In this document: piece by piece, positions 7,495-28,056 of the stretch | Position numbering within the stretch: position 1 is the first letter of the stretch | Layout of the letters: each line of letters begins with the position of its first letter | NCBI RefSeq assembly: GCF_000009965.1 | Contig: NC_006624.1 | Coordinates: forward strand, 1,500,001-1,532,000 | DNA length: 32,000 bases | Reading direction: 5' to 3' | Source of the DNA: Thermococcus kodakarensis KOD1 | GTDB taxonomy: Archaea > Methanobacteriota_B > Thermococci > Thermococcales > Thermococcaceae | The notes under the pieces: generated by a model | What the model was told of the DNA's origin: nothing | Seen by the model: only the letters and a program-made list of their open reading frames with translations | Databases searched by the model: none | Made by a program: the position numbers and the translations under genes

Positions 7495-8180
7495 CAACCC
7501 TTATCCTTCTCGCGGGCGGAATCGGAAAACGGGCAAACCTCGGCCTCCCCAAACAGTACTACAGGATCGAGGAGAAAATGATAATAGAGTACACGTTGGA
7601 AAACGTGTCAAAAGTCGGAGGCATAGACAGGCTAATCCTCGTCTCCAATCCTCAATTCATGGACACGGCCCTGGAACTGGCGGAAAGCTTTCCAAAGATA
7701 GAAACGGTCACGATAGGGGGGAAGACTAGGAACGAATCAATGTACAACGGATTTAAGGAAGTTCCACCGGGAGAGACCAAGGTTATAGTCCACGATGCCG
7801 TAAGACCATTCACACCCAGGTGGGTTTTTGAGAAAATAATAGACCTCCTGGACGAGATGGATGTGGTAACAACCGTGAACCCAATAACCGGGAACCTAAT
7901 AGAGCTGGATAATGGAAAGGTAAAGAGAATCCACGACCGTTCGAGATACGCCATGGGAGAGGCTCCCACAGGATACCGCTACGATGCCCTGAAGAAGACT
8001 CTTGAGACGGCACTATCACGGGGAATCCTGAACGAGATTCCCCACGACATCCTTCTCGCGATGGAGGCGGGATTCAACGTCCACGTGCTACATTGTAACT
8101 GCTTCAACCTGAAGATTACCTTCAGGGAAGACGTTGAGATCGCGAGGACCCTGATAAAAGTGCTGGAGGAGCAGCGTTGA
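7491..8180 (+). CDS. IspD/TarI-family cytidylyltransferase (probable CDP-polyol synthase)
   Basis: N-terminus MTTLILLAGGIGKRANLGLPKQYYRI matches the IspD/TarI signature AGGxGxR...PKQ. 229 aa. The start overlaps the stop of the TagF-like gene by 4 nt. Confidence 0.8.
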   Translation: MTTLILLAGGIGKRANLGLPKQYYRIEEKMIIEYTLENVSKVGGIDRLILVSNPQFMDTALELAESFPKIETVTIGGKTRNESMYNGFKEVPPGETKVIVHDAVRPFTPRWVFEKIIDLLDEMDVVTTVNPITGNLIELDNGKVKRIHDRSRYAMGEAPTGYRYDALKKTLETALSRGILNEIPHDILLAMEAGFNVHVLHCNCFNLKITFREDVEIARTLIKVLEEQR

Positions 8181-11592: not shown

Positions 11593-12882
11593 ATGGCCAG
11601 CAGGCCCGTTCAAATCTTTCACATCTGGAAACAAGACTTCTATCGGGACGCCCTTATCATGATGGTCGCGGTCACACTCTCCAACTTCTTTAATTACCTC
11701 TACCAGCTCCTAATGGGAAGAATGCTCTCCCCCCAGGAATACGGTGAACTTTTCAGCCTGTTGTCCCTGTTCTACATATTCTCCGTGTTTTCAACAACCA
11801 TAAACACTTCCATAACCAAATTTACGGCAGTTTACTGGGCAAGAGAGGAATACGGAAAGATAAAATCGATCATAATTAAGGGGACGAAAGTCCTGGGACT
11901 CTTCGGTGTCCTGTTGTTCGGGTTGATAGCCCTAATCTCCCCCATGTTTTCCAGTTTTCTCCAGATTGAGGACAACACACTTTTGCTGGTTTTGTTTGCA
12001 TCGCTTCCCCTCTCAATGGTTCTCCCCATATACCAGGGAGCCTTAAGGGGTATGCAGAGGTTCTCGGCGTTGGGGCTGAGCACGTCTTCCTGGGCGTTCC
12101 TTAAGGTGCTCTTCGGTGTTTCCCTGGTTGCACTCGGCTACGGAGTTTTTGGAGGTCTACTAGGGATATTTTTGGCACACGTGGGGGCGTTTTTCTTAAC
12201 ACTAATGTTTCTAAAGGATCTGTTCCAGTATAGGGAAACAGGGGACCTTGAAATTCGAGACATCCTCTCATACAGCGGTCTCGCGTTTCTCGCAGTTCTT
12301 GCGTACACAACAATGTGGAATATCGACGTTATTTTGGTCAAGCACTACTTGTCCCCCTTGGAGGCGGGGCAGTATTCCGCCATCTCTGCGCTGGGAAAGA
12401 TTGTCCTTTTTGCACCCGGAGCGATTGGAATGGTCATATTCCCCAAGGCCGCCGAAAAGCACGAGAAGGGAGAGGAACACTTCCAAGTGCTGCTGAGGGG
12501 AATGGGCCTGACACTCCTGATTTCAGGGGGAATAGTTTTGGCCTACGCCCTGTTTCCGGAGTTCATTATCAAAATCATTTATGGGGCAAAATATCTCAAT
12601 GTCGCCCCGTATCTGTGGAGATACGGGCTGGCGATGATGTTCTTTTCGTTGGCGAGCGTAATGATTAATTATTCCCTGTCAATAGACAAGACAGATATTT
12701 TTCTTTACCTACTTGGACTGCTGACAACTGAGATAGTTATGCTATCCATTGGAAGTAAGAACATTTCTACGATTATAGACATGCTAATCGGCGTAAGTGC
12801 CTCAATACCCATTGTACTGTTTATATCTATTTGGAGGCAAAATAATGCCCAAGATATCAATACTGATGCCCGCTTACAATGA
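11593..12882 (+). CDS. Second MOP-superfamily flippase (Wzx-like polysaccharide biosynthesis protein)
   Basis: 429 aa multi-TM protein. The N-terminal pattern ALIMMVAVTLSNFFNYLYQLLMGRMLSPQEYGELF parallels the flippase at 2593. Confidence 0.75.
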   Translation: MASRPVQIFHIWKQDFYRDALIMMVAVTLSNFFNYLYQLLMGRMLSPQEYGELFSLLSLFYIFSVFSTTINTSITKFTAVYWAREEYGKIKSIIIKGTKVLGLFGVLLFGLIALISPMFSSFLQIEDNTLLLVLFASLPLSMVLPIYQGALRGMQRFSALGLSTSSWAFLKVLFGVSLVALGYGVFGGLLGIFLAHVGAFFLTLMFLKDLFQYRETGDLEIRDILSYSGLAFLAVLAYTTMWNIDVILVKHYLSPLEAGQYSAISALGKIVLFAPGAIGMVIFPKAAEKHEKGEEHFQVLLRGMGLTLLISGGIVLAYALFPEFIIKIIYGAKYLNVAPYLWRYGLAMMFFSLASVMINYSLSIDKTDIFLYLLGLLTTEIVMLSIGSKNISTIIDMLIGVSASIPIVLFISIWRQNNAQDINTDARLQ

Positions 12883-13570
12883 GGGGGAAAACCTTAGAAA
12901 GGCAGTTATAGAAACCATGAAAGAGTTAAAAGGGCTAGACTACGAGATAATCATAATCAACGATGGATCCAGGGACAATACCCCCGAAGTCGCAAGGGAA
13001 CTCTGCGAGTCATTTAGGAACGTCCAACTAGTGAGCTATTCAAAGAACCGGGGAAAAGGGTACGCTCTAAAAAAGGGCTTCGAAAAGAGCAACGGTGAGA
13101 TAATCGTGTTCTTCGATGCAGATTTGGATATTCCTCCTTCCCAAATAAAGAGGTTCATAAAGTTTCTTCAAAATGGATACGACGTTGTTATAGGTTCAAA
13201 ATACCTTCCGGGAGCTAGGGTGAGGTACTCCGAGAAAAGAAGGCTATTCAGCATCTGGTACAGAACGCTCGTTAAATTACTGCTTAAGCTTGACGTCAGC
13301 GATACTCAGGTCGGACTCAAGGTGTTTAAGAGAGAAGTCCTGGAAAAGGCATTTTCCAAAGTCTTAGTCAAGAAGTACGCCTTTGATGTTGAACTTTTAA
13401 CCGTGATAAATATGTATGGATACAAGATTTATGAACTGCCGATTAAGATTGAACATAAGAGTTTTAACTCCTCCATAAACTATAGGGCAATAGCAAGAAT
13501 GTTTTTGGACACTGCAGCAATAGTTTACAGAAAAAACATCTTGCATTACTACAATGGTGATAAAAGATGA
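12845..13570 (+). CDS. GT2 glycosyltransferase, DPM1/GtrB-like (candidate dolichyl-phosphate hexose synthase), soluble type
   Basis: MPKISILMPAYNEGENL...IIIINDGSRDNT...NRGKGYALKKGFEKSNGEIIVFFDADLD...VVIGSK. ATG 12845 lies 7 nt after GGAGG. The track start at GTG 12797 would add 16 codons inside the flippase. Confidence 0.85.
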   Translation: MPKISILMPAYNEGENLRKAVIETMKELKGLDYEIIIINDGSRDNTPEVARELCESFRNVQLVSYSKNRGKGYALKKGFEKSNGEIIVFFDADLDIPPSQIKRFIKFLQNGYDVVIGSKYLPGARVRYSEKRRLFSIWYRTLVKLLLKLDVSDTQVGLKVFKREVLEKAFSKVLVKKYAFDVELLTVINMYGYKIYELPIKIEHKSFNSSINYRAIARMFLDTAAIVYRKNILHYYNGDKR

Positions 13571-14646
13571 GGATACTATGGCTCAACTGGAAGGATATAA
13601 GACACCCCGAAGCAGGGGGAGCTGAGGTTTATACTCATGAGATTGCAAAAAGATTAGTTGAAAAAGGATATGAAGTTACCCTCTTCACTTCGTATTTTAA
13701 TGGAGCTGAAAAGGAGGACGAAATTGATGGTGTCAAAATAGTCAGAAGCGGAAAAATAGTTGGTCTCTTTGATACGGTGTATTCCCACGCAAAGAGGTTC
13801 TACAGGGATAACAAAAACGATTTTGATGTAGTAATAGATGAGATAAACACCCGGCCATTTCTAACTCCAAAATACGTTGATAAGCCAATAATAGCGCTGA
13901 TACACCAATTGGCAGTTGAGTTTTGGGATTATAAGACACCGTTTCCGATCAATACCCTTGGGAAACACATCCTAGAACCCTACTGGTTAAAGCATTACGT
14001 CAATGTTAAAACAATAACTGTCTCCGAATCCACGAGGAACGACCTAGAAAAGCTCGGATTTAAAGATATTGAGATAGTTTACAATGGATTGGATAGAAAT
14101 ATTTTAGAGAAGGTCCCCGAAAAGGAAGACGAGTTTACCGCTTTATTCGTTGGCAGGTTGACCCCAACTAAAAAGCCCGAAGACGCCGTGATAGCCTTTA
14201 AAATGCTCAATAAGGGAAAAATGTGGATTGTTGGCAGAGGCGAACTTATGGAAAAGCTTAAAAAAAGGCATAATAATGGAAACATCGAATTTAGGGGGTT
14301 CATCCCTGAGAAAGAAAAAATTGAACTCATGAAAAAAGCCCACGTATTGTTGGTTCCAGGAATAAGAGAGGGCTGGGGGAGGGTCGTGATCGAGGCCAAT
14401 GCCCTGGGAACCCCAGCAATCGGTTATAACGTTCCTGGACTCAGGGACTCAATAAAGCATAGATACAACGGCTTACTGTGTGATCCAAACCCCAAGGCAA
14501 TGAGCGAGGCCCTTAGAGTATTGCACGAAGATGAAGAACTCAAAAGGAGATTAAGTGAAAACGCTTTAAAGTGGGCCAAAAGGTTCAGCTGGGATGAGAG
14601 TGCGGAGAAGTTTGAGAGGGTATTAAACTCCTCAGTCGGTGAGTGA
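13567..14646 (+). CDS. GT4-family glycosyltransferase
   Basis: EX7E motif PGIREGWGRVVIEANALGTP and N-terminal EAGGAEVY. ATGA overlap with the upstream gene. Confidence 0.85.
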   Translation: MRILWLNWKDIRHPEAGGAEVYTHEIAKRLVEKGYEVTLFTSYFNGAEKEDEIDGVKIVRSGKIVGLFDTVYSHAKRFYRDNKNDFDVVIDEINTRPFLTPKYVDKPIIALIHQLAVEFWDYKTPFPINTLGKHILEPYWLKHYVNVKTITVSESTRNDLEKLGFKDIEIVYNGLDRNILEKVPEKEDEFTALFVGRLTPTKKPEDAVIAFKMLNKGKMWIVGRGELMEKLKKRHNNGNIEFRGFIPEKEKIELMKKAHVLLVPGIREGWGRVVIEANALGTPAIGYNVPGLRDSIKHRYNGLLCDPNPKAMSEALRVLHEDEELKRRLSENALKWAKRFSWDESAEKFERVLNSSVGE

Positions 14647-14647
14647 G

Positions 14648-15466
14648 ATGGAGAATAAAGAGATGCCGCTGGTCTCTGTGATTATTCCCACGTACAACTC
14701 AGAAAAAACTATTGGAAAGTGCTTAGAATCAATCAAAAACCAGACCTACAAAAACATAGAGGTTATCGTCGTTGACAATTTTTCCCAAGATAAAACGGTT
14801 GAGATATGTAAAAAATACAATGCAAAAGTTATCCAAATCAAGAGCGAGAGGACAAAAGCGAAGAATATCGGGTTAAAAAAGGCAAATGGGAAATACGTCC
14901 TTTTTATTGATTCTGACATGGGATTAACTCCAAAGGTTATAGAGGAGTGTGTTATATTAATTGAATCAGATCCCAAAATCGGGGGGATAATAATCCCAGA
15001 GCGCTCTGTCGGTAATAGTTATTGGGTGAAGGTTAGAGATTTCGAGAGAAGTTTCTATACTGGAACTGAAATAGAATCCGCACGATTTTTCAGAAGGGAT
15101 TTAGCTCTACAAGTAGGGGGATTTGATGAAGACGTTGTATTTTTTGAGGAGTCTACACTCCCTCAGAAGATTGAGAAACTTGGATTCAATGTCAAAGCCA
15201 GAATAGAATCTCATATTATTCACCATGAAGAAAACTTTTCACTAATAAAATGGCTCAAAAAGAAGTATTATTATGGACAGACAGCCAGAAGATATAAATC
15301 GAAATATAGGGAGTATGGAAACAAGCAGATAAGCTTGTTTTACAGGTTTGGGTTGTTTTTTAAAAGGAAGAGATTTTGGAGCAAACCTCATTTGGCTGCC
15401 GGAGTAATTGTTTTAAAGGGATTGGAGTATTTAGCCGCAAGTGTTGGATATTTAAAGTCATCTTAA
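14648..15466 (+). CDS. GT2-family glycosyltransferase
   Basis: PLVSVIIPTYNSEKTIGKCLESIKNQTYKNIEVIVVDNFSQD and KNIGLKKANGKYVLFIDSDM. ATG 14648 sits 1 nt after the upstream stop and is preceded by GGTGAG. The track start is GTG 14639. Confidence 0.85.
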   Translation: MENKEMPLVSVIIPTYNSEKTIGKCLESIKNQTYKNIEVIVVDNFSQDKTVEICKKYNAKVIQIKSERTKAKNIGLKKANGKYVLFIDSDMGLTPKVIEECVILIESDPKIGGIIIPERSVGNSYWVKVRDFERSFYTGTEIESARFFRRDLALQVGGFDEDVVFFEESTLPQKIEKLGFNVKARIESHIIHHEENFSLIKWLKKKYYYGQTARRYKSKYREYGNKQISLFYRFGLFFKRKRFWSKPHLAAGVIVLKGLEYLAASVGYLKSS

Positions 15467-15486
15467 ACTTACGAAGGTGGAGAAAA

Positions 15487-16653
15487 ATGAGGATCCCTCA
15501 GAGAGCCTTGTTCATAGCAAATGGCATTGGGGCTGAAAATGGAAAACCAGGAATAAGTGGTGGAGACATAAGATGGATAGAAATTGCTAAAAAATGGCAA
15601 GAGATGGGAATTGAAATCCATGTATTGACTCAAGACGCCGGAATAGAACTTTGCAAAAGAGTAGGGCTAACAGCTGAGTTCCACAGGATGAAAATGCCAA
15701 GCGAATATTCAATAAGGGGGTATCTTTTAAGGGCCCTTAATTCTTTCAGGATCCCCCAAGAACTCATGAGATTTGAGGGAATAATCTATGCTTCCACAGA
15801 GCATTGGTATGATGTTATTCCTGGAGCATTAATTAAAAGGAAAAATCCTCAGAACAGATTCGCAATAGTAGCTCATTGGGTTGCACCACTAATAAGGAAA
15901 GGAACTTCGGCTATAAATAGCATCCTTTTTTATATTAACCAACGCGTGGGATATTTTGTTGGTAAGAGATACTCAGATGTTTTTTTAGCAGTATCCAAAC
16001 CAACTGGAAATGATTTAAAAAGAATAGGGATACCTGAGTCCAAAATAAGGGTAGTTGAAGCAGGTGTAGATTATGAGAGAATAAGACAAATTTCATCCAA
16101 AATAAAAGAGAAACAATTCGATGGAGTATTTATGAAAAGATTTGACGGTACTAAAGGCGTCTTCGATGTAGTGGAAATATGGGAACATGTAGTCTCAGAG
16201 ATTCCAGATGCAAAACTGATTTTGATCGGTCACGGAACCAAAACAAATGTGAATAAATTAGAAAGAATGATTAAGGATAAGAAGCTCGAAGAAAACGTAA
16301 AAATTCTGGGTCCAATATATGATTTCGAAGAGAAATTTAAGACACTGGCAAAAAGCAAAGTGTTTCTCTTACCTAGCTATGAAGAGAATTGGGCAATAGT
16401 AATCGGAGAGGCAATGGCCGCAGGATTACCTGTAGTATGTTACGATCTACCCGAAATACGACCAATTTGGAAGGACAACGTTATCTGGATTCCAAGAGGA
16501 AATAAAAAAGAATTCGCTAAGAAAGTTGTTGAATTGCTTGAGAATGAGAATGTTGGAAAAAGAGTAGGAGAAAATGGAGCCAGATTTGTTAAGAGATATG
16601 ATTGGAGAAAAATAGCTGGAAAAGAGCTGATGATAATCCAAAGGGGGGTCTGA
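15487..16653 (+). CDS. GT4-family glycosyltransferase
   Basis: EX7E motif PSYEENWAIVIGEAMAAGLP. ATG 15487 is preceded by GGTGGAG. The track start at TTG 15376 overlaps the upstream gene by 91 nt and encodes junk-like sequence. Confidence 0.8.
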   Translation: MRIPQRALFIANGIGAENGKPGISGGDIRWIEIAKKWQEMGIEIHVLTQDAGIELCKRVGLTAEFHRMKMPSEYSIRGYLLRALNSFRIPQELMRFEGIIYASTEHWYDVIPGALIKRKNPQNRFAIVAHWVAPLIRKGTSAINSILFYINQRVGYFVGKRYSDVFLAVSKPTGNDLKRIGIPESKIRVVEAGVDYERIRQISSKIKEKQFDGVFMKRFDGTKGVFDVVEIWEHVVSEIPDAKLILIGHGTKTNVNKLERMIKDKKLEENVKILGPIYDFEEKFKTLAKSKVFLLPSYEENWAIVIGEAMAAGLPVVCYDLPEIRPIWKDNVIWIPRGNKKEFAKKVVELLENENVGKRVGENGARFVKRYDWRKIAGKELMIIQRGV

Positions 16654-16655
16654 TT

Positions 16656-17666
16656 TTGATCCAAAAAGAGGCCATTCCCAAACTAATTACTATAGAGACA
16701 AATAAAGAGATAATCCCAGGGTTTTCAATTTCGCCTTTTTTAGTAGATGCCAAGGACACCACAGAAAAAACACCATTCTGGTTCAGATTTCAAGTGGATT
16801 CTAAGTTTCATATTAACAAACATGATGTCGTTAAAGTATTTGATAGATTTATGCTTCTAAGAGATGGTTCTATATACTACTCCAATCACATACTTCCAAA
16901 AATCATGCTTAATTTGGTATTTAGACCCAATACTAATGAGATTCAAGTTAATCCCACATACTTCTTATTAGTAAAAGAGAAGATTGGATCGGCATATCCA
17001 CCTGGAGTATTGTTATTAGATTATGTCTTTGTTGAACTTCTTGTGCGTAACTTCTTTGTATTACATGCTAGCGGTATTTCGGATAATGATGGTGCATATT
17101 TATTTATTGCTCCTCCAAATACGGGTAAGACCACTACTGTGTTACAATTTCTAAATAATCATAAAAATTTATTATACGTCGGAGAAGACACTGTGATCAT
17201 AGATGCTAAACGGAATTTTGTATACCCTACACCTCATACTTCAACTTTCTTCCATCATGAAACTCGCTTTGGGCATATTGAAGGACTATTTCGTGTAAAA
17301 TATAAACCAACAGGAAGATCCCTTTTTAGGGGTAGAATACTAGATACTCCTCAGAATATTTCCTCAATATTTTTACTTCAGAAAGGAATAGATGACAAAA
17401 TTATTCCCTTAGAGGATGTTGACCATAGATATATTATGAAAATACTACTTTCAATTCAACGGTACGAATTTTCCTGGTTCAAAAACCCTTTGCTACGTGC
17501 ATCATCCTTTTTATTAGATGATTGGTACAACCTTGATGAATTACTAAACAAAGAAGAAGAACTTCTTTGGAAACTATTAAAACGAAACCAAGTTTTTTTA
17601 GTTCGCAGTTCAAATAGTTTTCGATTTTATAACATAATAAGAGATCATTTAGATATAAAACCGTAG
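16656..17666 (+). CDS. P-loop protein resembling HPr kinase-related kinases (HprK C-terminal-like fold); function unknown
   Basis: LHASGISDNDGAYLFIAPPNTGKTTTVLQFL...LLYVGEDTVIID has the HprK-type arrangement: LHA, strand, Walker A (APPNTGKT), helix, then an acidic xxED/DD. There is no ATG near the 5' end. TTG 16656 lies 2 nt after the upstream stop and follows AAGGGGGGT; TTG 16602 is the longest option. Confidence 0.5.
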   Translation: MIQKEAIPKLITIETNKEIIPGFSISPFLVDAKDTTEKTPFWFRFQVDSKFHINKHDVVKVFDRFMLLRDGSIYYSNHILPKIMLNLVFRPNTNEIQVNPTYFLLVKEKIGSAYPPGVLLLDYVFVELLVRNFFVLHASGISDNDGAYLFIAPPNTGKTTTVLQFLNNHKNLLYVGEDTVIIDAKRNFVYPTPHTSTFFHHETRFGHIEGLFRVKYKPTGRSLFRGRILDTPQNISSIFLLQKGIDDKIIPLEDVDHRYIMKILLSIQRYEFSWFKNPLLRASSFLLDDWYNLDELLNKEEELLWKLLKRNQVFLVRSSNSFRFYNIIRDHLDIKP

Positions 17667-17682
17667 TAAACAGGGGGTAAAT

Positions 17683-20600
17683 ATGGAAAGGATGCGTTAT
17701 ACATATCTACGAGTTGGTTTTATATACGCACTAGTGTCTTTCCTCTCAAATGCTTACTATATTTTTTCTCCAGGCGTTATCGGATTTAGACATGACTGGA
17801 GAATCCCGTACCTCCCTGGCCAAGTGTGGGACAGGTTTTTTGAAGCAATATTTACTTGGAATTCTATCTCTGGTAGGGGGGTGTCGGGAGTTCCAAACAC
17901 TTTATTATATGAAAGACTCTTTGAGCTCGCACTAGCAGTTTTGGTCAGATTTAATGGTGAGGTATTATCAAAGATTATTGTTCCGATTATTATGTTGGTT
18001 TCTGCTTTGACCATGTTCTATTTAGGCAAGGTACTAAGATTCTCTAGTAAGTCCGCATTCTTTATGGGTCTTTTCTATATGTTGACTCCTGTACTTTATA
18101 ATAGAATCATAGCTGGATATCATCTCTATAATTTTGCATATGCAATCTCACCATTGTTTTTTGCATTTTTACACAAATATGTTTATTACAAACAAAGATG
18201 TTCATATATTCTCACAGCCGCATTAGTATTTGGCATGTCGGCTGTTCAAGTGCAGTTTCCCCCAATGTTAGCGTTTATGGCGGCTCTGTACTTGTTGATA
18301 TTTGCTATATCAAAAAGAAACTACTCCTCACTTATAATATCATTAAAAGCCATCGCTATTCTTATAGTGCTATTTATCATACTTAACTCTTTTTGGATTT
18401 TAACAATGTTTATGAATCCAGGATCTAAACTTGTGATAAATAAAGCAGCACCAATTGATTATCATGAAATTATGAACGCTCCTAAGCTTCTTCCAGCATT
18501 TTTAATGACTGGATATAGTCATGTTTATGATCCATTTTATCTCTATACTCACAATAAACTGCCCAGTTTAGTCATATACTCTCTGTTATCCTTGTCAATT
18601 CTTTCACTTATAGCAAGCATCTTTGCTATTAACAAAAAAGAGCAAGCATATCTCGCTGTGTACTCACTCTCATTGCTTTCTATTGGATTATTCTTTGTGT
18701 CTGCTCTAAACGGACCATTCCCCCAATTGTGGAAACTTCTCTACCTTAAAATTCCAATTCTTTCAGTATTTCGTGAGGTATATCATTCAATGTTTATAGT
18801 AACATTTGCATATACTTTACTTGTTGGAATGCTCATAGAAGAGCTTCACAAGAAACTCTCCTCTCCTAGATCGAAAAATCTATTAGTAGTGATATTATTG
18901 TTTATAATTCTATCTTCTGGATACCCTTCGTTAAATTCGTTTATGCATCAATTAAACGTATTAAATTATGGGAACAGCGACATTGAGGTGTATAATTTTC
19001 TGAAAAATGAATCAGGGATATATCGCGTAGTTTATGTACCATCCTTAAGCCCTATAAGATACCCTACTATAAATCGGGGCTCTGTGGACTTGATGATTAA
19101 ATATAGCCCAAAACCAACGTTTCCACAGCATGTGACTAGGGTATTCCCTTCCGAAGGGATTTTACAATATTATGTGTTGACCTCAATTGAACACCCTGAA
19201 AGAATAGAGAATATTCATGAATTACTCGGAAAGATCAGTGTAAAATATATAATTTGTAGACCCAATTGTACATCCTATTACCCATATTACGTTCCAATGT
19301 TGAGATACCTCCAAAAAGTTTATGGTAGTACTATACTATACCACCGCTGGTTTAATACAAGCCTTCGATGTGACAATATAAAACATAGGGGACAAATATT
19401 GAACTTTAACAACATAAATTTAGTTCAGATAGATAATTCTCCGTTTATCAATGTAGGCGGGACTCCTTTGGTTTTCTCTTCATTTGACGATTTGTTGTCC
19501 GGAGTTCGTTATTTAGATAATAATTTTGCAATAATTTTGAATGTCCATTTAAGAGAATTTCCACTTATTAATAATATCAGCAACACATTTGTATTCACTA
19601 ACGAACCCTTGTATGATTTATACTTGATGGACTCCTATTTGAGCACTACTTTATTTGTAACGCCAAACGCACCAAACAACAGACCTGAGAAGAGCTGGGC
19701 AACTGATTTGCTTAGTTGGTATATTAATCCCTCCATTGCTATAGCCCCTCTCTATGGAGAAAATACAGTACTCACGTGGGCCCCTCCCACGGCAGATTTA
19801 CCGGAAAACATGCCTATATCCAATTTAATTGCCAGTTGGGACTTTACATCCCAAGATCAAGTTAAAGCATGGGAAAATGTCACTCCAAAAATCCAGTTTA
19901 GTGCTATTCAAACAATTTCATGGGACGAAAGTGTGCAAGCTCTTAGAGCAGAACTTTACAATTCAACTTGGGTCTGGAAGACAATTAGATCCCCTCTGAT
20001 TCCGGTTAAATATGATCACGTCTACAGATTTATGTTTAAAGTTAAAGGTCAAAATACTAATGTAGTTCATGCTTATGTTAAAGAATATGATGTCAATAAA
20101 ACGCTGATCAAAGGCTCTTTCTTATATTACCCTTTTATAGGTGATGGAACTTTCAACTGGAAAACAATTTCTTTCAACTACCAGCCCCAAAGTGAAGATA
20201 CCCGCTATATCCAACTCCAGATATGGCATGGCCACGAAACAGATAAACCGCTACCTAACATAATCTGGATAGATGACGTGAAAGTCTATGACATAACAAA
20301 CTATACCAAACCCGTAACTCTGGACATTCCCTTCAAAGTCGATAAAACTGACAATTACAAGCTTTTCATCCGCTACTTTAAGAACCAGAAGGGCGGCGCA
20401 ATAAGGGTTTATTTAGATGGAACTCCAATTTATATCAAGACCAAAGACCAGCTTAACAAATTCGTTTGGGAAGATCTAGGAACATTCAAGCTTGAAAAAG
20501 GAAAACACAAGATAGTCCTTGAGAACGTTAGGGGATTTAACGCAGTTAATCTATTTGCGTTGATACCTGAAAAAGAGTACAATAAAGCAAGAAAAGAGGC

Positions 20601-21411
20601 CATAGAACTATTGCAGAACAAAACCATAATATATCTCTTCGAAGCAGAATCCGATTTATACAGGGAAAACACCGAGATTATAAAAGACTTCAACGCAAGT
20701 AACGGAGAGGCCATAAAATTCGACCAGAAGGGAAAAGCATGGCAAAACGTGGAGATAGTGAAAAACAGTACCTACAGACTTGCATTAAAGGGCAATGGTA
20801 CATTTAATATATCCATAGGAGACTATAAGTATGTTTTAACTGTAAACAATTCAACATTTGAATATACCCCACTGTTCTACTTGAGAAATGGAGAATACAA
20901 ATTAGAAATAACCCCTACATCAAAGGACGCCCTCTTGGACGTGGTCTGGCTCTACTCAACTGATAAAAACGAAACACTCGAAGAACTCTTCCAAACAAAT
21001 GAAACTCCCGCCACAGTCCAGGACTACACAAAGGTCAACCCAACCCTCTGGAAGGTCAAAGTCAACGCAACAAAGCCCTTCATGTTAACCTTCGCCGAAT
21101 CCTATGATCCGCTGTGGGAGGCGAGAGTTTACAAGGATGGCAAACTCGTGGAAAAAGTCTCCCCAGTTCCGGTATACGGAGTCATCAACGGCTTCTGGAT
21201 TAATCAGACAGGGGACCTTGAAATAGTCCTGAGATACACTCCTCAGGACTGGTTCGAGAGGGGACTGATGGTATCCTTAACAACTTTCCTCCTCAGTGTA
21301 TTCTACATCTTCTACGACTGGAGAAGAGAAAAGGGGGACAAATGGGCCAAGAGGCTAGAGAAGAAGTTCAAAAAACTAACCAGCAAAGTTAAACGAAAAT
21401 TAAGCCCTTAA
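17683..21411 (+). CDS. Giant (1242 aa) membrane protein, GT-C-like (YfhO/AftD-like), with a large extracytoplasmic region and a C-terminal TM anchor
   Basis: The N-terminal roughly 420 aa has many TM segments, with an acidic first loop (GFRHDWRIPYLPGQVWDRF). The central part has jelly-roll/CBM-like signatures (FNWKTISFNY...IIWIDDVKVYD). The C-terminal block SYDPLWEARVYKDGKLV...VNGFWINQTGDLEIVLRYTPQDWFERGLMVSLTTFLL resembles the conserved end of YfhO/AftD-type GT-C enzymes. The protein ends in a basic tail. The CDS itself is near certain; the function is inferred. Confidence 0.6.
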   Translation: MERMRYTYLRVGFIYALVSFLSNAYYIFSPGVIGFRHDWRIPYLPGQVWDRFFEAIFTWNSISGRGVSGVPNTLLYERLFELALAVLVRFNGEVLSKIIVPIIMLVSALTMFYLGKVLRFSSKSAFFMGLFYMLTPVLYNRIIAGYHLYNFAYAISPLFFAFLHKYVYYKQRCSYILTAALVFGMSAVQVQFPPMLAFMAALYLLIFAISKRNYSSLIISLKAIAILIVLFIILNSFWILTMFMNPGSKLVINKAAPIDYHEIMNAPKLLPAFLMTGYSHVYDPFYLYTHNKLPSLVIYSLLSLSILSLIASIFAINKKEQAYLAVYSLSLLSIGLFFVSALNGPFPQLWKLLYLKIPILSVFREVYHSMFIVTFAYTLLVGMLIEELHKKLSSPRSKNLLVVILLFIILSSGYPSLNSFMHQLNVLNYGNSDIEVYNFLKNESGIYRVVYVPSLSPIRYPTINRGSVDLMIKYSPKPTFPQHVTRVFPSEGILQYYVLTSIEHPERIENIHELLGKISVKYIICRPNCTSYYPYYVPMLRYLQKVYGSTILYHRWFNTSLRCDNIKHRGQILNFNNINLVQIDNSPFINVGGTPLVFSSFDDLLSGVRYLDNNFAIILNVHLREFPLINNISNTFVFTNEPLYDLYLMDSYLSTTLFVTPNAPNNRPEKSWATDLLSWYINPSIAIAPLYGENTVLTWAPPTADLPENMPISNLIASWDFTSQDQVKAWENVTPKIQFSAIQTISWDESVQALRAELYNSTWVWKTIRSPLIPVKYDHVYRFMFKVKGQNTNVVHAYVKEYDVNKTLIKGSFLYYPFIGDGTFNWKTISFNYQPQSEDTRYIQLQIWHGHETDKPLPNIIWIDDVKVYDITNYTKPVTLDIPFKVDKTDNYKLFIRYFKNQKGGAIRVYLDGTPIYIKTKDQLNKFVWEDLGTFKLEKGKHKIVLENVRGFNAVNLFALIPEKEYNKARKEAIELLQNKTIIYLFEAESDLYRENTEIIKDFNASNGEAIKFDQKGKAWQNVEIVKNSTYRLALKGNGTFNISIGDYKYVLTVNNSTFEYTPLFYLRNGEYKLEITPTSKDALLDVVWLYSTDKNETLEELFQTNETPATVQDYTKVNPTLWKVKVNATKPFMLTFAESYDPLWEARVYKDGKLVEKVSPVPVYGVINGFWINQTGDLEIVLRYTPQDWFERGLMVSLTTFLLSVFYIFYDWRREKGDKWAKRLEKKFKKLTSKVKRKLSP

Positions 21412-21545
21412 CTAGAGAAAGTTTCGGGTCACGAGTTCAGCTTTGTGAAACTTTTCACGTTGATATTTCAAGAACAATAAACAGACTGAAGATTTGTAAA
21501 AAATTTAATAAATCCCATAGGAGATACTCAGATCGGGGAAATCAC

Positions 21546-22403
21546 ATGACGGATAAAATATTGTCTGCAGACTCAAAGTCACTTGTTATTGTACGTAAAA
21601 AGCAGTTTAAGGCAAACATTGGTGTCGCTTTATTGTTCGAAGACCCCAAAAAATTCAAAGAGAATTACATCAACTATTTTGAGAGCCTTAAAGGTAATCT
21701 CAACACTAAGAATCCAAGATACGTATTCAAAAGCAAAGACATAAAGTCGCTCTTTGGTCATGATAAATCTAACGAAATTATAGAGGACTTTGTTTCCCTA
21801 ATCAATGAATCTAAAGTCACCGTTAGTTTTGTGTTCTCTATATTCAACACGAAGCGTTTAAGGGAGGTTAAATATTACTCCAAGGACAATACAGTAAAGA
21901 CGGAAAAGCCCATGAAGTTTATAGACAAGCTAACGAGTTATTTCTCATACATAACCGCATGGAAATCAATAAGAGAGCTTGGACTTAACGGCATCAAAGT
22001 TTATCTGGACAATTTCGATGAACAGGAATATACCTACGCATGGGATGATATAACAGTATCTAACCGGCCAGTTATCTTCCCAAAGGGGGATCAAGTTAAT
22101 CTTTTTATCTCCACTGCAGACATCATAGTCGAATACGTTTATAGGAAAATTATGGAACAAAACATCCGCCTGGGAGTTAGAGAGATGTATGAGCTTAATG
22201 AAAAGCACTTAGGTCTTGATAATTTTAAAGTATCTTATAGTGGAAACAGAGATGTTAAATACCTAGCACCATATTCACACAGGAAGATTCCAATTAGAGA
22301 CTACCTCGCAAGACCAATGCTTTATGTTTTAACCGAAGGATTAATTGGGAAAGGAAGAAAGAACAGTTATAGAGAATTCCCCGTCCTTCCAATATCTTCT
22401 TAG
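21546..22403 (+). CDS. Hypothetical protein, first part of a probably frameshifted gene
   Basis: 285 aa AT-rich ORF with no motif I can assign securely. There is a weak DUF3800-like pattern (ALLFED near the N-terminus; GDQVNLFISTADIIVEYVYRKI later). TATA-like TTTAATAA lies at 21504-21511. Confidence 0.6.
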   Translation: MTDKILSADSKSLVIVRKKQFKANIGVALLFEDPKKFKENYINYFESLKGNLNTKNPRYVFKSKDIKSLFGHDKSNEIIEDFVSLINESKVTVSFVFSIFNTKRLREVKYYSKDNTVKTEKPMKFIDKLTSYFSYITAWKSIRELGLNGIKVYLDNFDEQEYTYAWDDITVSNRPVIFPKGDQVNLFISTADIIVEYVYRKIMEQNIRLGVREMYELNEKHLGLDNFKVSYSGNRDVKYLAPYSHRKIPIRDYLARPMLYVLTEGLIGKGRKNSYREFPVLPISS

Positions 22404-22857: not shown

Positions 22858-23029
22858 ACGCTGATCTAGCGATAGAACGTTAGTATCACCAGAGATCTCG
22901 TGTTTCTTCTATCCCTATCTGTTTCTTTTCTTCCCAAAATCTCCCACATTAAGAAAATTTTAAAGCTCATGACCAAAATTGGGACATAAAGACTTATGCA
23001 AGAATCAAAGACTTTAATAGGTGAATCCT

Positions 23030-24478
23030 ATGAAAAAGTTAGTCTCTCTAATGTTAATCACTATGTTGTTCACTTTCGCTCTGGCCCAGAAAGAATGGAT
23101 GGGCCATGGCGTTAATATAACCCTGATGGAAAATGGAATAATAAAAGCAGCCTCCACACGGAGCGGGCTTAACACCCTAATCTCCCCACTATTTCCAATA
23201 AATACAACCCTGAAATATTCCTTCTCAATAAGGAGCGAGAGTACCAACGGCGTTTTAGCGGAGATTGCTTATTTTGACGAAAACAGAACTTTCATGTTCG
23301 CCAAGAACGTTACAGTCGTAGGAAACGGCTCGTTTGGATGGAAAAACGTCGAAATAGTCGCCCTACCAGCTGAAGGGGCGACGTTTTCTTCCCTGGTGAT
23401 TGCGATAAACGGCACTGGGATGGTTTACATTGATAACTTCACCGTCAGCGAAGCTAAGCCAACAGAAAAACCAGAGATGGAGAGCACAACCCCAACTAAA
23501 ACCGGGGCACCAAAAAAGACCGAAACCACAACATCTCAAGAAATTGGAAAAGGAACCATACCCTATGAAAACTCTCAAAAGCTTTCAATTGACGATGACG
23601 ATATCAAAGTCGAAGTCTTTCTAAACAAAACCTACCACCCCGGGGATACCATAAGGGCGGACTTCTACATAACCAACAAAAAGGGAGTAATCTATGAGAT
23701 AGACATAAGGCTCGATGTGTATTACCTTGGAATCAAAGTGTTCTCGTACGAGCACCCCTCCTGGCGCGAATACAGGGAGGGAAAAACTGTCCACATATTC
23801 CAGGAATCCAAACTCCCAGTGATCACTCCCCCCGGCAGATACACCCTGAAGTTCTACATAACTCCCGCGGGCAGGGAGACGAAAGAGCTGGAAGGGGAAA
23901 TAACGGTAAAGCCAAACCTCGAATGGATTTTGCTAGTTGTGTTCTCAGCGTTTTCACTCCTCGGGATTATCCTCCTGATCAGAAGATACTGGAGGTTGCT
24001 GGTTAAAACATACAGGGAGTTTTCAATCGGACAGAGATTCGTGTTCTTCGCAGTGGTGGGACTGATAATAGCGGCGGTCATACTAGCGCTTGGGGCCGAG
24101 AACTACGCCAACGATGTGGCAATCGTGGTGTATTATCTCCTCTTAGTTGGAGTTCTAAACGAGTGGGTCGAGTACCTGGAGCCCAAGTGGGACAGGGAAA
24201 GTATAAGAGAAGTCTCCAGCGTCTACCTGCTCGCATTGTTGATGTACCTATCAAAGGACACGTTCACCGTTTATCCGGCGATAGCAATTTTTGCCCTAGG
24301 GACCGTTGTCGGCTTGCTGAGGTTACAATCAAAGAACGGTGAAACTCCACCTGGGGCTAAAGCAACAGTCCCCAAGGGTAAAGTGAGCATCGAAGAGATT
24401 GAGATAGTTGGGGAAACCGAGGAAGGATTCATAATCTACGAAATAAAGAGTAAAAGCAAAAAAGAAAAGAGCGGGTAG
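23030..24478 (+). CDS. Secreted, membrane-anchored glycoprotein candidate (signal peptide, CBM-like domain, Thr/Pro linker, Ig-like domain, C-terminal multi-TM region)
   Basis: ATG 23030 lies 5 nt after GGTGA; the track start is GTG 23021. Signal peptide MKKLVSLMLITMLFTFALA-QK. Seven N-x-S/T sequons fall in the first roughly 115 mature residues (NIT, NTT, NRT, NVT, NGS, NGT, NFT). The linker reads KPTEKPEMESTTPTKTGAPKKTETTTSQE. About 4-5 hydrophobic helices follow after aa 300. Confidence 0.7.
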   Translation: MKKLVSLMLITMLFTFALAQKEWMGHGVNITLMENGIIKAASTRSGLNTLISPLFPINTTLKYSFSIRSESTNGVLAEIAYFDENRTFMFAKNVTVVGNGSFGWKNVEIVALPAEGATFSSLVIAINGTGMVYIDNFTVSEAKPTEKPEMESTTPTKTGAPKKTETTTSQEIGKGTIPYENSQKLSIDDDDIKVEVFLNKTYHPGDTIRADFYITNKKGVIYEIDIRLDVYYLGIKVFSYEHPSWREYREGKTVHIFQESKLPVITPPGRYTLKFYITPAGRETKELEGEITVKPNLEWILLVVFSAFSLLGIILLIRRYWRLLVKTYREFSIGQRFVFFAVVGLIIAAVILALGAENYANDVAIVVYYLLLVGVLNEWVEYLEPKWDRESIREVSSVYLLALLMYLSKDTFTVYPAIAIFALGTVVGLLRLQSKNGETPPGAKATVPKGKVSIEEIEIVGETEEGFIIYEIKSKSKKEKSG

Positions 24479-24520: not shown

Positions 24521-25887
24521 ATGGAAGAGAGAACTAAACTAGTCCTAATCTGGGTTGTGATGATCTTTATCCCCTTATTCACATTGAGGCTTTTCCAGGA
24601 TGAGATGTTATACTTGAACATCTCAATGAAAGTACTCCACTTCGAATTTCTGCCCAGATCTTCGCTCGTTTTCATTCTAACGTCGCCCCTGATGGCATTT
24701 GATAGTGTCGACCTCAGGGTGTTTCTACCCAGGGCCGCAACAGCCTTCGCAACGCTAACAGACACAATCCTGATCTATGAAATTGCCAAAAGATATCATG
24801 GAAAAAAAGCTGGATTCCTGAGTTCTCTAATGTTCCTTTTTTCATTTGTAGCTTTAAGATACGGGGCAAGATACACTCTGGAGCCATGGGGGACGCTCTT
24901 CATACTCTCGGCAATCTATTATTTCGAGGAAAAGCCCCTTACAGCATCTCTTTCAATGGGCTTGGCCTTTTGTGCGAGGGAAACTTGGCTCACAACGTAT
25001 CCTTTCTTTTTGGTGTACGCGTGGAGAAAAAGGAGAAAAGAGTTCTTGAAAATTCTGATGATCTCGGCATTTCCCATAGTATTGAATTTCCTGTTTATAG
25101 CATCGATCAGTGTATACCAAAGTCCCATAGGCTACAATGCGCGAGACACATTAAATGGGGAGCCCGCTACATTGTGCTGAGACTAGCGCGGAGCTGGCTT
25201 GAATTTTCAGTTGCTTATGTCCTGATAGTTGTTGGGTTTATATACGGGACAAAACACGACAAAACACATAGGGACATCCTGTTAATGATACTGCCATCAG
25301 TGATAACGCTGAACGGAGTTAATGGATTCATCCTTAACGGCCCGTTCGAGCGCTACACCTTTGGACCATTGGCGTTAATGAGCATCTTCTCTGGGTATGG
25401 CATAATCGAGCTCTACAACAACTTTAAATCGAAAATTAAGCCCCTGAATATTCTAACTGTCGAGAAATGGATAGCGCTGTTTCTGATTGTACAGCTCATT
25501 CTCCTCAACGCCGCCGTCCTAAAGCTCAGCGACATAGGGGCAAAGGGAATTCAAGACTACGGCTACTGGTACGATAGGAAGGTGTTCAACATCCTAAAAG
25601 AGAGGGCAGCCCCGGAAGAGTTTTTCGTTGGAACCCCCCATCCCGCACTCATTGGTTTTAAAAATTGGACCTGGGCAGACAGGAACATAAAGAAGGCCGT
25701 AGAGCTCGATCCAGACTGGTTGATAACGTTCAAGAGCTGGGTTAATTTTAGGGAGAATCCCCAAGAAATCCGTGAGCTTGAAATCTATTCCGTGGGCCCA
25801 TACCTGCTAATTCATGCTGAGGAGAAAGGTGCTATAAAGAAATACGTCGTTTCAAGTGATTTAAAGCTCTGGAAATTCAGGAAATAA
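24521..25887 (+). pseudogene. ArnT/PMT-like GT-C glycosyltransferase split by a single frameshift (ORFs 24521-25180 and 24886-25887)
   Basis: The first ORF is multi-TM with the first-loop motif RLFQDEMLY (the DE motif typical of GT-C family 39/83). The second ORF looks protein-like only from about ARYIVLRLARSW onward. Adding one G to the G4 run at 25157-25160 gives ...ARDTLNGGARYIVLRLARSW... and a continuous ORF of about 455 aa. Confidence 0.65.
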
Positions 25888-26938
25888 AGCGTTTAATCGC
25901 TTTTCTCCCCGTTACTGCCATTTTTCTCCTCATCTTCTCATCCTCAAGCAAAAAAAGGATCTTTTCTGCTATATCCCGCTCATCCAGTCTAGCCAGGAGC
26001 CCGCTCTTTTTATCATCAACGATTACCGGAAATTCCCCAACTCTGCTGACTATGGCGGGAGTCCCCAAAGCGAGGGCCTCCACGACAACCATCCCAAAGG
26101 CCTCGCTCTTGGATGACGGCAAAACCAGGAGTTTAGCCGATTTATAACTGCTGATAAGCCTCTCCCTGCTCACCCGTCCAAGAAATTCAACGTTGCCTTC
26201 CAGGCCCAAATCCTCGGCTAATTTCGTGTAATAGCCTATTAGGTCTCCTCCGCCGATCACAACAAGCTTAACATCGGGGATTTCCCGCTTGACCAAAACC
26301 AAAGCCCTTAACAATAAATCGAGGTTTTTCCATCTATGGAACCTGCCAAGTTGGCCAACAAAGAGAACAGTATTCCCATCACCTCTGAAATCGGGTCTTT
26401 CAAGAATGAACGCCTCATCAATCTTCGGGTATTCCACTTTTGAATGAAACCCCTTCCTCCCCAAAATCCTCTGGACATATCGGGAAACTGATATGATTTT
26501 AGTATTCCGCAAAGTCATCTTTTCAACCGTTCTCTCATAAAACCCTGCCAGGACATCAGTCCAGGAACCCTTCTTCAGCTCGCCGGTGTGATAAACAATT
26601 GTTATAGGCTTTCCCATAAGCTTCGCAGCAAAAGAGGCAACATCCGCAAAAAACGGTACCGGTGTGTGGGCAATTATAACGTCAAAATTCTGTCTCTTAA
26701 TCATCCGTATAAGCTCGAACGGCAGGAGAACCCTAACAGGTGTGTTCGAGATAATGAGGTTGGGTTTTTTTCGTATCACTTTAATATTGCCAATTTTTTC
26801 AGTTCTTTCATATAGTTTTGTTGCGCATACGACAACCACCTCATTTTCCTCGCTCAGCTCCTTTGCCATCTTATAGGCGTATCTCTCCAGCCCGCCGCCT
26901 TCTGGATAAAAATAGGGAGCAACGAGCAGAACCCTCAT
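25877..26938 (-). CDS. GT4-family glycosyltransferase
   Basis: MRVLLVAPYFYPEGGGLERY and the EX7E motif PSSKSEAFGMVVVEALALGTP. The 3' end overlaps the convergent GT-C gene by 11 nt. Confidence 0.85.
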   Translation of the reverse strand: MRVLLVAPYFYPEGGGLERYAYKMAKELSEENEVVVVCATKLYERTEKIGNIKVIRKKPNLIISNTPVRVLLPFELIRMIKRQNFDVIIAHTPVPFFADVASFAAKLMGKPITIVYHTGELKKGSWTDVLAGFYERTVEKMTLRNTKIISVSRYVQRILGRKGFHSKVEYPKIDEAFILERPDFRGDGNTVLFVGQLGRFHRWKNLDLLLRALVLVKREIPDVKLVVIGGGDLIGYYTKLAEDLGLEGNVEFLGRVSRERLISSYKSAKLLVLPSSKSEAFGMVVVEALALGTPAIVSRVGEFPVIVDDKKSGLLARLDERDIAEKILFLLEDEKMRRKMAVTGRKAIKRFIS

Positions 26939-28056
26939 TCAAACTCCTCCTTCAACATTAGGGAGCTAACGAAAAACGAGAAGAATATCAGCTGGATGCT
27001 CATGGCTATCAAGGTCAGCACTATTATGGCTGACCTAATTTCAAACAGTTCCCCATAACCTAAAGCTCTCCACTTCAAGAATATTCTAATTCCCAATGTT
27101 AAACCGGCGATGAATAATATTCCCCCAAACATAAGGCCTTCTTCCAATATCGAATATCTCATGAAAAATTTCGTGATTTTATCTGGTTTATCGAGTCCTT
27201 CCCTAACGGCGTAGACCTTTCCAGAGATTCCAAAGTTTATCACCTGGAACCCAACTATGGTCAAAAGGCTTCCCAGAATCATAGTATGTACCCTGAGCGG
27301 GTCCGTATTGGAAGCGTAGGCCAGGAGAACTATCCCAGTAATCATCAAAAACAACCCCGGAAGAAGGAACAAGTGGGATGGCGAATAAAGTAGCATCAGC
27401 CTCAGATGCCTCCACCCATCCCTAAACGAACTCAGTTTGGATTCCCCAATCCTTGGGCGATAAGTTATGGGCACCTCCCTAATCTTTAAACCTGCTTTTG
27501 CCGCCTCTATGACCATCTCGCTTGCGAATTCCATTCCACGGCATTTCAGAGGAAGCCTCTGCAATGCCTCTTTTTTTATCGCCCTGAAGCCGCAGTGGGC
27601 ATCGGAGACTCCAGCTTTAAAAAACAGATTGAGGACCTTGGTCAGAAGAGGATTTCCTATGTACCGATGAAGCCACGGCATTGCACCGGGTTCGATCATT
27701 CCCTTAAGTCTGGTCCCAATGACAAAATCTGCCTCATCCTTCAGTAGAGGTTCCAGCAACTTCGGAATCTCGCGGGGATCATAGCTCCCATCCGGATCCA
27801 GCATCACGATGTACTTTCCCCGAGCAACTTTGAACCCCTCAATGTATGCGTCTCCATAGCCTCTTCTTTTCTGACGGATTACCCTCGCACCCAATTCAGC
27901 CGCGATTTTGGGTGTTGCATCCGTACTTTTATCCACCACAATTATCTCATAGGAAACGCCCAACCTTTCCAGAGTCTCCTTTATTTGAGGGATTATTATT
28001 TTCACTGCATCTTCCTCGTTCATTGTGGGCAAAATCACGGAGACTTCAACTGTCAT
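26935..28056 (-). CDS. Membrane-anchored GT2, polyprenyl/dolichyl-phosphate hexosyltransferase-like (GtrB/AglJ/Alg5-like)
   Basis: VSVILPTMNEE...IIVVDKSTD...GYGDAYIEGFKVARGKYIVMLDPDGSYD...VIGTRL...GNPLLT...CGFRA, followed by four C-terminal hydrophobic helices (aa about 230-365). This matches the architecture of lipid-phosphate sugar synthases. Confidence 0.8.
   Translation of the reverse strand: MTVEVSVILPTMNEEDAVKIIIPQIKETLERLGVSYEIIVVDKSTDATPKIAAELGARVIRQKRRGYGDAYIEGFKVARGKYIVMLDPDGSYDPREIPKLLEPLLKDEADFVIGTRLKGMIEPGAMPWLHRYIGNPLLTKVLNLFFKAGVSDAHCGFRAIKKEALQRLPLKCRGMEFASEMVIEAAKAGLKIREVPITYRPRIGESKLSSFRDGWRHLRLMLLYSPSHLFLLPGLFLMITGIVLLAYASNTDPLRVHTMILGSLLTIVGFQVINFGISGKVYAVREGLDKPDKITKFFMRYSILEEGLMFGGILFIAGLTLGIRIFLKWRALGYGELFEIRSAIIVLTLIAMSIQLIFFSFFVSSLMLKEEFE

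Follow-up and report, generated by a model that had tools for sequence, protein, structure and literature searches.

The solved structure nearest to the predicted fold of the protein considered here is that of AftD, a mycobacterial cell-wall arabinofuranosyltransferase of the GT-C type, which consists of 11 N-terminal transmembrane (TM) helices, a soluble GT-C domain, three carbohydrate-binding modules (CBMs), a structural beta-sandwich, TM12 and a separate group of helices, TM13-16 (bioRxiv 10.1101/2019.12.22.885152). GT-C enzymes with CBMs also occur in bacterial three-component systems (PMC11127046). In the AglD/AglR/AglS system of Haloferax, a Wzx-like protein takes part in the movement of dolichyl-phosphate (Dol-P)-mannose, and a multispanning transferase adds mannose to a protein-bound glycan (PMC3871713). 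We analyzed a stretch of 32,000 nucleotides from Thermococcus kodakarensis KOD1 (NC_006624.1, positions 1,500,001 to 1,532,000; hereafter the window, in whose numbering all positions are given). The open reading frame (ORF) at 17683-21411 (+) starts with ATG, has 1242 codons and carries a Shine-Dalgarno-like GGGGGT directly 5' of the start codon. We found that its product is very probably some form of AftD-like GT-C glycosyltransferase. Its gene belongs to a conserved module with a Wzx-type flippase and four cytoplasmic glycosyltransferases.

Predicted fold and domain architecture

Because sequence searches of the PDB reached no GT-C enzyme, the fold was tested by structure prediction. We built an AlphaFold2 model of residues 1-715 from an alignment of 89 sequences, and it reached a mean pLDDT of 90.8 and a pTM of 0.92. 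In the model, TM1 spans residues 2-22, the first outer loop (residues 24-87) is structured and contains two loop helices, and TM2-TM11 end at about residue 417, which gives 11 membrane-crossing helices in total, followed by a mixed alpha/beta domain. A Foldseek search of the PDB with this model returned AftD (6W98) as the top match (E 4e-9, query TM-score 0.56, 657 columns). The remaining significant matches were all GT-C enzymes, namely STT3, AglB, PglB, DPY19, ArnT, Pmt4 and AftA, and GT-C enzymes filled all of the top 30 places. STT3, AglB and PglB made up the second tier after AftD, with E about 5e-7 to 8e-6. The features of the GT-C_A fold class found in the protein are the multi-pass core, with 11 helices where the class has 7-13, the structured first loop, a conserved acid in that loop and the similarity to solved GT-C structures.

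Residues 421-1242 were modelled separately with a pLDDT of 89.2. The model contains an alpha/beta domain (421-714) and beta-sandwiches at about 715-870, 878-962, 981-1092 and about 1110-1185, and ends with a long helix (1186-1217) and a second helix in the tail. Among the Foldseek matches of this part, AftD again took the first three places (three entries with E from 1.6e-13 to 1.6e-12 over about 1000 columns), and after them came proteins rich in CBMs and jelly-rolls, CBM4 and CBM22 among them.

An earlier note on this DNA, made from the sequence alone, had read the protein as a GT-C-like enzyme of four parts: a polytopic core, an extracytoplasmic region with many sequons and CBM-like strands, a C-terminal block ending in a TM helix, and a lysine-rich tail. 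Hydropathy, the models and the composition of the tail confirm this architecture, and AftD heads the structural matches of both the core and the ectodomain. The parts of the gene are as follows, with the basis of each in parentheses.

17683..21411 (+): whole gene, 1242-aa membrane protein, very probably an AftD-like GT-C glycosyltransferase (ORF; AlphaFold models; Foldseek top match AftD)
17683..18942 (+): 11-helix GT-C membrane core, residues 1-420 (AlphaFold secondary structure, pLDDT mostly 93-98; hydropathy)
17794..17796 (+): codon of Asp38 within H37-D38-W39, located where the first outer loop begins, candidate for an acid that acts in catalysis or metal binding (conservation among 89 sequences)
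18943..19824 (+): mixed alpha/beta soluble GT-C domain, residues 421-714 (conservation; models; covered by the 657-column alignment with AftD 6W98)
19825..20292 (+): beta-sandwich 1, CBM4/9-like, residues 715-870, holding IIWIDDVKVYD (modelled strands; weak CBM matches)
20314..20568 (+): beta-sandwich 2, CBM35/CBM6-like, residues 878-962 (model; weak CBM_35_2 match)
20623..20958 (+): beta-sandwich 3, residues 981-1092, after a linker helix at 963-977 (model; no family match)
21010..21237 (+): C-terminal beta-sandwich, the C-terminal block of the earlier note, residues 1110-1185 (alignments with the relatives P0012 and P0013; model)
21262..21321 (+): second membrane anchor, TM12, residues 1194-1213, within the long helix 1186-1217 (hydropathy; model)
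21322..21408 (+): cytoplasmic helical tail rich in Lys and Arg, residues 1214-1242 (composition; model)

The hydropathy profile consists of a multi-pass block at about 1-420 plus a lone hydrophobic segment at 1194-1213. The 29 residues of the tail (1214-1242) include 14 K/R against 3 D/E. The short strings on which the earlier note had drawn were located in the translation: HDW at residue 37, WDRF at 49, IIWIDDVKVYD at 860, SYDPLWEARVYKDGK at 1140 and FWINQTGDLEIVLRYTPQDWFERG at 1171. There are 20 N-x-S/T sequons, 19 of them in the ectodomain (residues 421-1193), where composition-preserving shuffles (n=2000) led us to expect 7.4 +/- 2.5. This is a 2.5-fold excess, and 0 of the 2000 shuffles reached 19. 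The TM core has one sequon against 1.9 expected and thus is not enriched. The sequon excess of the ectodomain goes beyond chance and is consistent with an outward orientation of this region, given that the organism has AglB.

Sequence family and candidate active site

A word-indexed search with the 1242-aa protein returned 13 relatives. In an exhaustive hidden Markov model (HMM) search of 1.84 billion cluster representatives (clustered at 50% identity), a profile of residues 1-518 found 11,321 representatives at E <= 1e-3, of which 6,597 were at E <= 1e-10 and 900 at E <= 1e-30. The family is very large, extends across Archaea and Bacteria and is essentially unannotated. Sampled members came from Acidobacteriota, Aminicenantes, Nanoarchaeia, Thermoplasmatales and Thermococcaceae, and were named 'hypothetical protein' or 'DUF6541 family protein' (at NCBI, one relative). 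A literature search found no paper mentioning DUF6541. The membrane core is the best-conserved region of the family.

One full-length relative lies on a megaplasmid of Halobellus ramosii (28% identity, 95% coverage). A word-indexed search with it returned itself alone, and this search gave neither a close Haloferax member nor a link to the Haloferax low-salt pathway. The RefSeq name of the Halobellus member, WP_256546776.1 (NZ_CP101826.1, 12193-16092 of our locus L007), is 'DMT family transporter'. This name is likely a misannotation that is propagating, as both fold and family point to GT-C.

The link to AftD at the sequence level runs through distant relatives. The 1242-aa protein itself has no match to Pfam GT-C_AftD (PF11847) at E <= 0.1. 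P0012, a distant relative of 734 aa, passes this model with 37 bits against a cut-off of 26, and is collinear with the 1242-aa protein over residues 335-415, the last core helices (E 4e-7), and 1086-1206, the C-terminal block with its anchor (30% identity, E 2e-11). P0013 aligns with the C-terminal block at 33% identity (E 7e-13). The C-terminal beta-sandwich is kept even in minimal family members of 734 aa. We scanned 44 relatives against Pfam at E <= 0.01 and found GT-C_AftD in 11/44, DUF6541 in 3/44, PTPS_related in 2/44, CBM_4_9 in 2/44 and TMEM260-like in 1/44. In the 1242-aa protein, PTPS_related gave a faint match over residues 97-422 (E 0.075).

The earlier note had compared the C-terminal block with both AftD and bacterial YfhO. 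The AftD half of this comparison holds, the block and the anchor being common to P0012, which passes GT-C_AftD, and the YfhO half found no support. YfhO (PF09586) matches neither the whole 1242-aa protein nor any of the relatives (0/44 at E <= 0.01), nor was it found at E <= 10 with the C-terminal 153 residues or with the C-terminus of P0012. The C-terminal block by itself matched no Pfam family at E <= 10. The view that the protein is not an STT3-type oligosaccharyltransferase (OST) was borne out: a motif search of the protein found no WWD, WWDYG or W.D[YWF]G, and there was no STT3 match in Pfam.

For the ectodomain, sequence and profile searches of the PDB gave only weak CBM matches, at about residues 715-960. 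Sandwich 1 has weak sub-threshold matches to CBM_4_9 and CBM_4_9_1, and its PDB profile matches are a hyaluronate lyase CBM and a laminarinase CBM4; CBM_4_9 is above threshold in two relatives. Sandwich 2 has a weak sub-threshold match to CBM_35_2, together with weak PDB profile matches to MiXBM and a polysaccharide-binding protein. Sandwich 3 had no family match in the HMM scan. Models, Foldseek and HMM matches together agree with the CBM-like beta-sandwich modules that had been proposed.

We then examined conservation in the 89-sequence alignment, in which most sequences are 15-25% identical to the 1242-aa protein. Position 38 is acidic in 89/89 sequences (77 D and 12 E, no gaps), and D38 is invariant in the alignment A2. 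Other positions in the core and the soluble domain are strongly kept: W59 (79/89), Y132 (81/89), P136 (85/89), P157 (89/89), F363 (80/89), R364 (77/89), R448 (74/89), P453 (88/89) and D469 (62 D and 15 E of 89). The soluble domain has further conserved residues at S475-P-K-P478 and K521-Y522. W49-D50-R51-F52 is not conserved, so that of the two motifs from which an acidic first loop had been read, HDW stands and WDRF does not. GT-C_A enzymes carry an acid for catalysis or metal binding where the first outer loop begins, and Asp38 is the candidate for this acid here. The residues reported as essential in AftD are K39, D41, E251, K361 and D474 (bioRxiv 10.1101/2019.12.22.885152).

The conserved module and a proposed role of the enzyme

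The window is a glycan-biosynthesis island. It holds a nucleotidyltransferase, two Wzx-type flippases and many GT2 and GT4 genes, besides the gene of the 1242-aa protein, a true AglB, a PMT_2-type GT-C and an AglJ/DPMS-like GT2 with C-terminal TM helices. We compared the window proteins with other loci by tblastn and found that five of them form a conserved module with the 1242-aa protein, whose gene comes after the other five. Carriers of the module are two Thermococcales-type contigs (L001 and L004, 71% identity in the 1242-aa protein), a Thermococcaceae metagenome-assembled genome (MAG; L005), a Thermoplasmatales MAG (L006, 42%) and a metagenome locus (L002, 30%). A scan of species genomes with the single 1242-aa protein gave 3 loci. 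On the Halobellus plasmid (L007), the gene of the relative comes after those of an oligosaccharide flippase, annotated as such, and of a glycosyltransferase, a set shorter than the full module. The Wzx/Polysacc_synt flippase is kept beside the gene in six loci. The five partners in the window are listed below.

11593..12882 (+): Wzx/MOP-type flippase, conserved partner (Pfam Polysacc_synt; L001, L002, L004, L005, L006; annotated flippase in L007)
12797..13570 (+): GT2, conserved partner, candidate polyprenyl-phosphate sugar synthase (sub-cut-off NCBIfam matches; kept in all loci)
13567..14646 (+): GT4, conserved partner (library match; tblastn conservation)
14639..15466 (+): GT2, the most strongly conserved partner, with 57-60% identity where the 1242-aa protein has 30-42% (library match; tblastn)
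15376..16653 (+): GT4, conserved partner, true start probably downstream of the listed TTG (library match; tblastn)

From the gene order we infer that the 1242-aa protein is the extracytoplasmic enzyme of a Wzx-dependent pathway that has a single flippase and two enzymes each of the GT2 and GT4 types. Whether such an enzyme would be a polymerase or a tailoring enzyme had been left as alternatives by the earlier note. Both versions stand, and we prefer tailoring: in view of the predicted fold, the remote homology to AftD, the conserved Asp38, the topology, the gene context and the known three-component systems, we give about an even chance to a Dol-P-sugar-dependent transferase that adds single sugars, in tailoring or elongation, in a Wzx-dependent surface-glycan pathway. 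The GT2 encoded at 12797 (GT2_12797) would make a Dol-P-sugar, and the Wzx protein would flip it to the outer face. There the 1242-aa protein would take the dolichyl-phosphate-carried sugar. Asp38, with the conserved R364, R448 and D469 near the interface of membrane and ectodomain, would activate the acceptor and bind phosphate or metal, and the sugar would be passed, with inversion, to a surface glycan that the CBM-like modules hold. This scheme has parallels in AglD/AglR/AglS of Haloferax and in the bacterial GtrB/GtrA/Gtr*.

The second GT2 of the module (GT2_14639) was considered as a GtrB/DPMS-type donor synthase and rejected. Its best PDB and NCBIfam matches are elongating GT2s (chondroitin synthase, EpsD), and DPMS was reached only at 7e-9; the donor-synthase idea was therefore moved to GT2_12797, which has no TM helices. 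Decaprenyl-phospho-arabinose and arabinan are very unlikely substrates, since no enzyme of the decaprenyl-phospho-arabinose route could be recognized among the annotated ORFs of the window and the gene lies in an archaeal Wzx/GT2/GT4 operon.

Several observations weigh against the single-sugar reading, or against the AftD assignment on which it builds. No Pfam or NCBIfam model reaches threshold on the 1242-aa protein, and neither AftD nor any other GT-C came up when PDB chains were searched with its full-length sequence, with P0012 or with three profiles of the family. The structural alignments with AftD show 11-12% identity in both halves, so the substrate cannot be transferred by homology. 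The putative equivalence of D38 with D41, R364 with K361 and D469 with D474 of AftD is suggestive. Sandwiches 1-3 are CBM-like by fold and by sub-threshold HMM matches, and their binding of sugar is putative. The family has no member with a characterized activity, donor or acceptor. The best NCBIfam matches of GT2_12797 (PgfS, ArnC, Dol-P hexose transferase, PpgS and AglJ) score 52-97 bits against cut-offs of 325-529. Finally, the two GT4 enzymes and the second GT2 exceed the needs of a three-component system and fit the assembly of an oligosaccharide that is flipped by Wzx.

This last point leads to the alternative that survives best, in which the donor would be a flipped Dol-P-oligosaccharide, used en bloc either for Wzy-like polymerization or for AglB-independent transfer to protein or lipid. 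We regard it as possible, at roughly half the weight of the single-sugar version. The module pairs one Wzx, four cytoplasmic glycosyltransferases and one GT-C, and Pfam and NCBIfam scans found no Wzy- or WaaL-type protein among the window ORFs. The 1242-aa protein itself has no Wzy, Wzy_C or O-antigen ligase match in Pfam or NCBIfam, and none of these is among its Foldseek matches. The OSTs STT3, AglB and PglB are its next-best structural matches after AftD. The flanks of L002 and L006 have no AglB-like tblastn match and L007 has no annotated OST, and the flippase and the 1242-aa protein are retained in all three; however, AglB usually lies elsewhere in archaeal genomes, and its absence from flanks proves little. 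In the Thermococcales loci the module adjoins a true AglB (in the window at 9095-11395, with WWDYG at residue 494), which could consume the flipped glycan. AftD, the nearest structural relative, uses a monosaccharide-phosphate-lipid donor, and we know of no non-OST GT-C_A enzyme that transfers oligosaccharides. Haloferax is known to have a glycan transferase that does not depend on AglB and that was unidentified as of 2023 (PMC3892788; PMC10384203), although the word-indexed search with the Halobellus relative found no close family member in that genus. In its full form, this alternative describes a non-STT3 enzyme with a Wzx-flipped Dol-P-oligosaccharide donor, acting as a Wzy-independent polymerase or an AglB-independent (N-/O-) oligosaccharyltransferase, with the CBM-like modules holding the growing or acceptor glycan. 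We rate it as unlikely, if well short of negligible. If true, the protein would be the kind of enzyme inferred, and never identified, in Haloferax volcanii (PMC3892788).

The protein could also be a non-catalytic surface protein, such as a membrane-anchored lectin, adhesin or S-layer scaffold, with the GT-C-like core as a mere anchor. About 60% of its mass is beta-sandwich ectodomain with a high density of sequons, and no curated enzyme family was matched. Against this, the first-loop acid is kept in 89/89 sequences, and W59, Y132, P136, P157, F363-R364, R448 and P453 are kept at 15-25% identity. The membrane core is the part of the family under the strongest conservation, and the gene lies inside glycan-biosynthesis operons in all loci. 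Conservation and fold led us to reject this reading, which we consider highly improbable. The transporter suggested by the product name of WP_256546776.1, and by a multi-pass core, deserves next to no credence and was rejected, as the 1242-aa protein has no EamA/DMT Pfam match and transporter folds appeared in Foldseek only at E > 0.02, TM-score about 0.1 and probability <= 0.33, below 30 GT-C matches.

A possible physical partner of the 1242-aa protein is encoded downstream of it.

23021..24478 (+): 485-aa membrane protein with a CBM-like N-terminal module and a multi-TM C-terminus (tblastn; module alignments)

This gene follows that of the 1242-aa protein in L001, L004 and L005. Its N-terminal module is paralogous to sandwich 1 (E 1e-8), and its TM region aligns with the extension behind TM12 in the protein P0006 (residues 1397-1497, E 3e-6), a weak match that may be inflated by composition. 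The P0006 fusion is a possible Rosetta-stone link, which hints that the 1242-aa and 485-aa proteins work together, possibly in a complex. The 285-aa ORF at 21546-22403, which lies between the two genes and matches nothing in Pfam or NCBIfam, is missing from L001 and L004. In these two contigs a 488-aa gene directly follows that of the 1242-aa protein, so the ORF is probably an insertion. The slot on the 5' side (16602-17666) encodes a 354-aa protein with a P-loop-like APPNTGKTT and a faint ScmC/HPr-kinase-like match. In L001 the same slot (7857-9059) holds a polysaccharide pyruvyl transferase, so it is variable.

Base composition changes along the island. The module is AT-rich, with 35-40% GC over 12000-22000 against 47-53% in the flanks, and the gene of the 1242-aa protein has 37.3% GC against 53.8% for aglB. 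The AT-rich module fits a horizontally exchanged, variable glycan cassette. Contig L004 (JACDNZ010000030.1) is labelled as a Thermosipho sp. MAG; it is collinear with the archaeal island, holds a fragment of AglB with 66% identity and has an L001-like layout. Probably it is a mis-binned Thermococcales contig and not a bacterial gene.

Further observations concern other genes of the window. The downstream PMT_2-type GT-C is split between two reading frames, with ORFs at 24521-25180 and 24886-25887 that overlap, and its L001 homologue is one intact gene of 455 aa. This points to a frameshift near 25150-25180, and so to either a pseudogene or a sequencing error. A 373-aa GT2 at 26935-28056 (-), 5.5 kb downstream, resembles AglJ and Dol-P hexose transferase (E 6e-56, below cut-off) and has four C-terminal hydrophobic segments, as in Pyrococcus DPMS. 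It is likely a Dol-P-sugar synthase that could feed the PMT_2-type GT-C, the AftD-like GT-C or both. At 6265-8180, a TagF-like CDP-glycerol glycerophosphotransferase lies beside an IspD/TarI-like cytidylyltransferase; the pair suggests a glycerol-phosphate-containing, teichoic-acid-like surface glycan. The edge of the island (738-1566) holds a nucleotidyltransferase (Polbeta/MNT) and a HepT-like RNase, which resemble a type VII toxin-antitoxin pair.

Significance and comparison with known systems

In archaea, surface glycans influence how stable the S-layer is, how viruses attach and how biofilms form. To our knowledge, the outer-face enzymes that build them are almost unknown apart from AglB and AglS. 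Through the 1242-aa protein, a huge family of unannotated or misannotated proteins gains a defined fold, a residue that may be catalytic and a place in a conserved pathway of six genes. The protein is a candidate for steps that still lack an enzyme, be it the last tailoring of glycans, the growth of exopolysaccharides or a glycan transfer that bypasses AglB. The results support a correction of database annotation for a family now labelled 'hypothetical', 'DUF6541' and 'DMT family transporter'. If a member is characterized, it will probably found a new CAZy glycosyltransferase family.

The earlier note had called the protein a new type of archaeal enzyme, which is overstated. It is a member of a very large, cross-domain and unstudied family, and GT-C enzymes with CBMs are established in AftD, EmbA-C and GT136 (PMC11127046). 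The kind of enzyme is known, namely an AftD-like GT-C with built-in CBMs. The family has no characterized member, fails the curated AftD, YfhO and STT3 models and lacks the C-terminal domain of AftD. In several archaeal classes its genes belong to a module of Wzx type that is distinct and conserved.

Compared with AftD (PDB 6W98; PF11847), the 1242-aa protein repeats the domain order through TM12 and then stops. Both have an acidic residue at about position 40 of the chain, and they are linked remotely in sequence through P0012 and 11/44 relatives. TM13-16, the region to which TM12 connects in AftD and which forms an acyl-carrier-protein site there, is absent, and one TM helix and a 29-residue tail stand in its place; the TM extension of the P0006 type, or the possible 485-aa partner, is loosely reminiscent of it. 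AftD is mycobacterial, whereas the protein described here is archaeal and encoded in a Wzx/GT2/GT4 operon.

No sequence relation between YfhO and the 1242-aa protein was found. DUF6541 (PF20176) and PTPS_related (PF10131), which we take to be members of the GT-C clan, are uncharacterized membrane families; some relatives match them, and the 1242-aa protein is below threshold for both. STT3, AglB and PglB belong to the same GT-C_A fold class, and their genes likewise lie beside genes for lipid-linked oligosaccharide assembly and a flippase. Unlike them, the 1242-aa protein has neither WWDYG nor an STT3 domain, and AglB is encoded separately in the window.

The locus likewise resembles the three-component systems GtrB/GtrA/Gtr*, CsbB/GtcA/YfhO, GT136 and AglD/AglR/AglS in combining a GT2, a MOP/Wzx-type flippase and a GT-C. 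It differs in that GtrB has C-terminal TM helices, which GT2_12797 lacks, and in the additional two GT4 enzymes and second GT2 of the module. ORF12 of GT136 is, like the 1242-aa protein, a GT-C with CBM-like modules (PMC11127046), and AglD/AglR/AglS provides an archaeal precedent with a Wzx-like flippase (PMC3871713).

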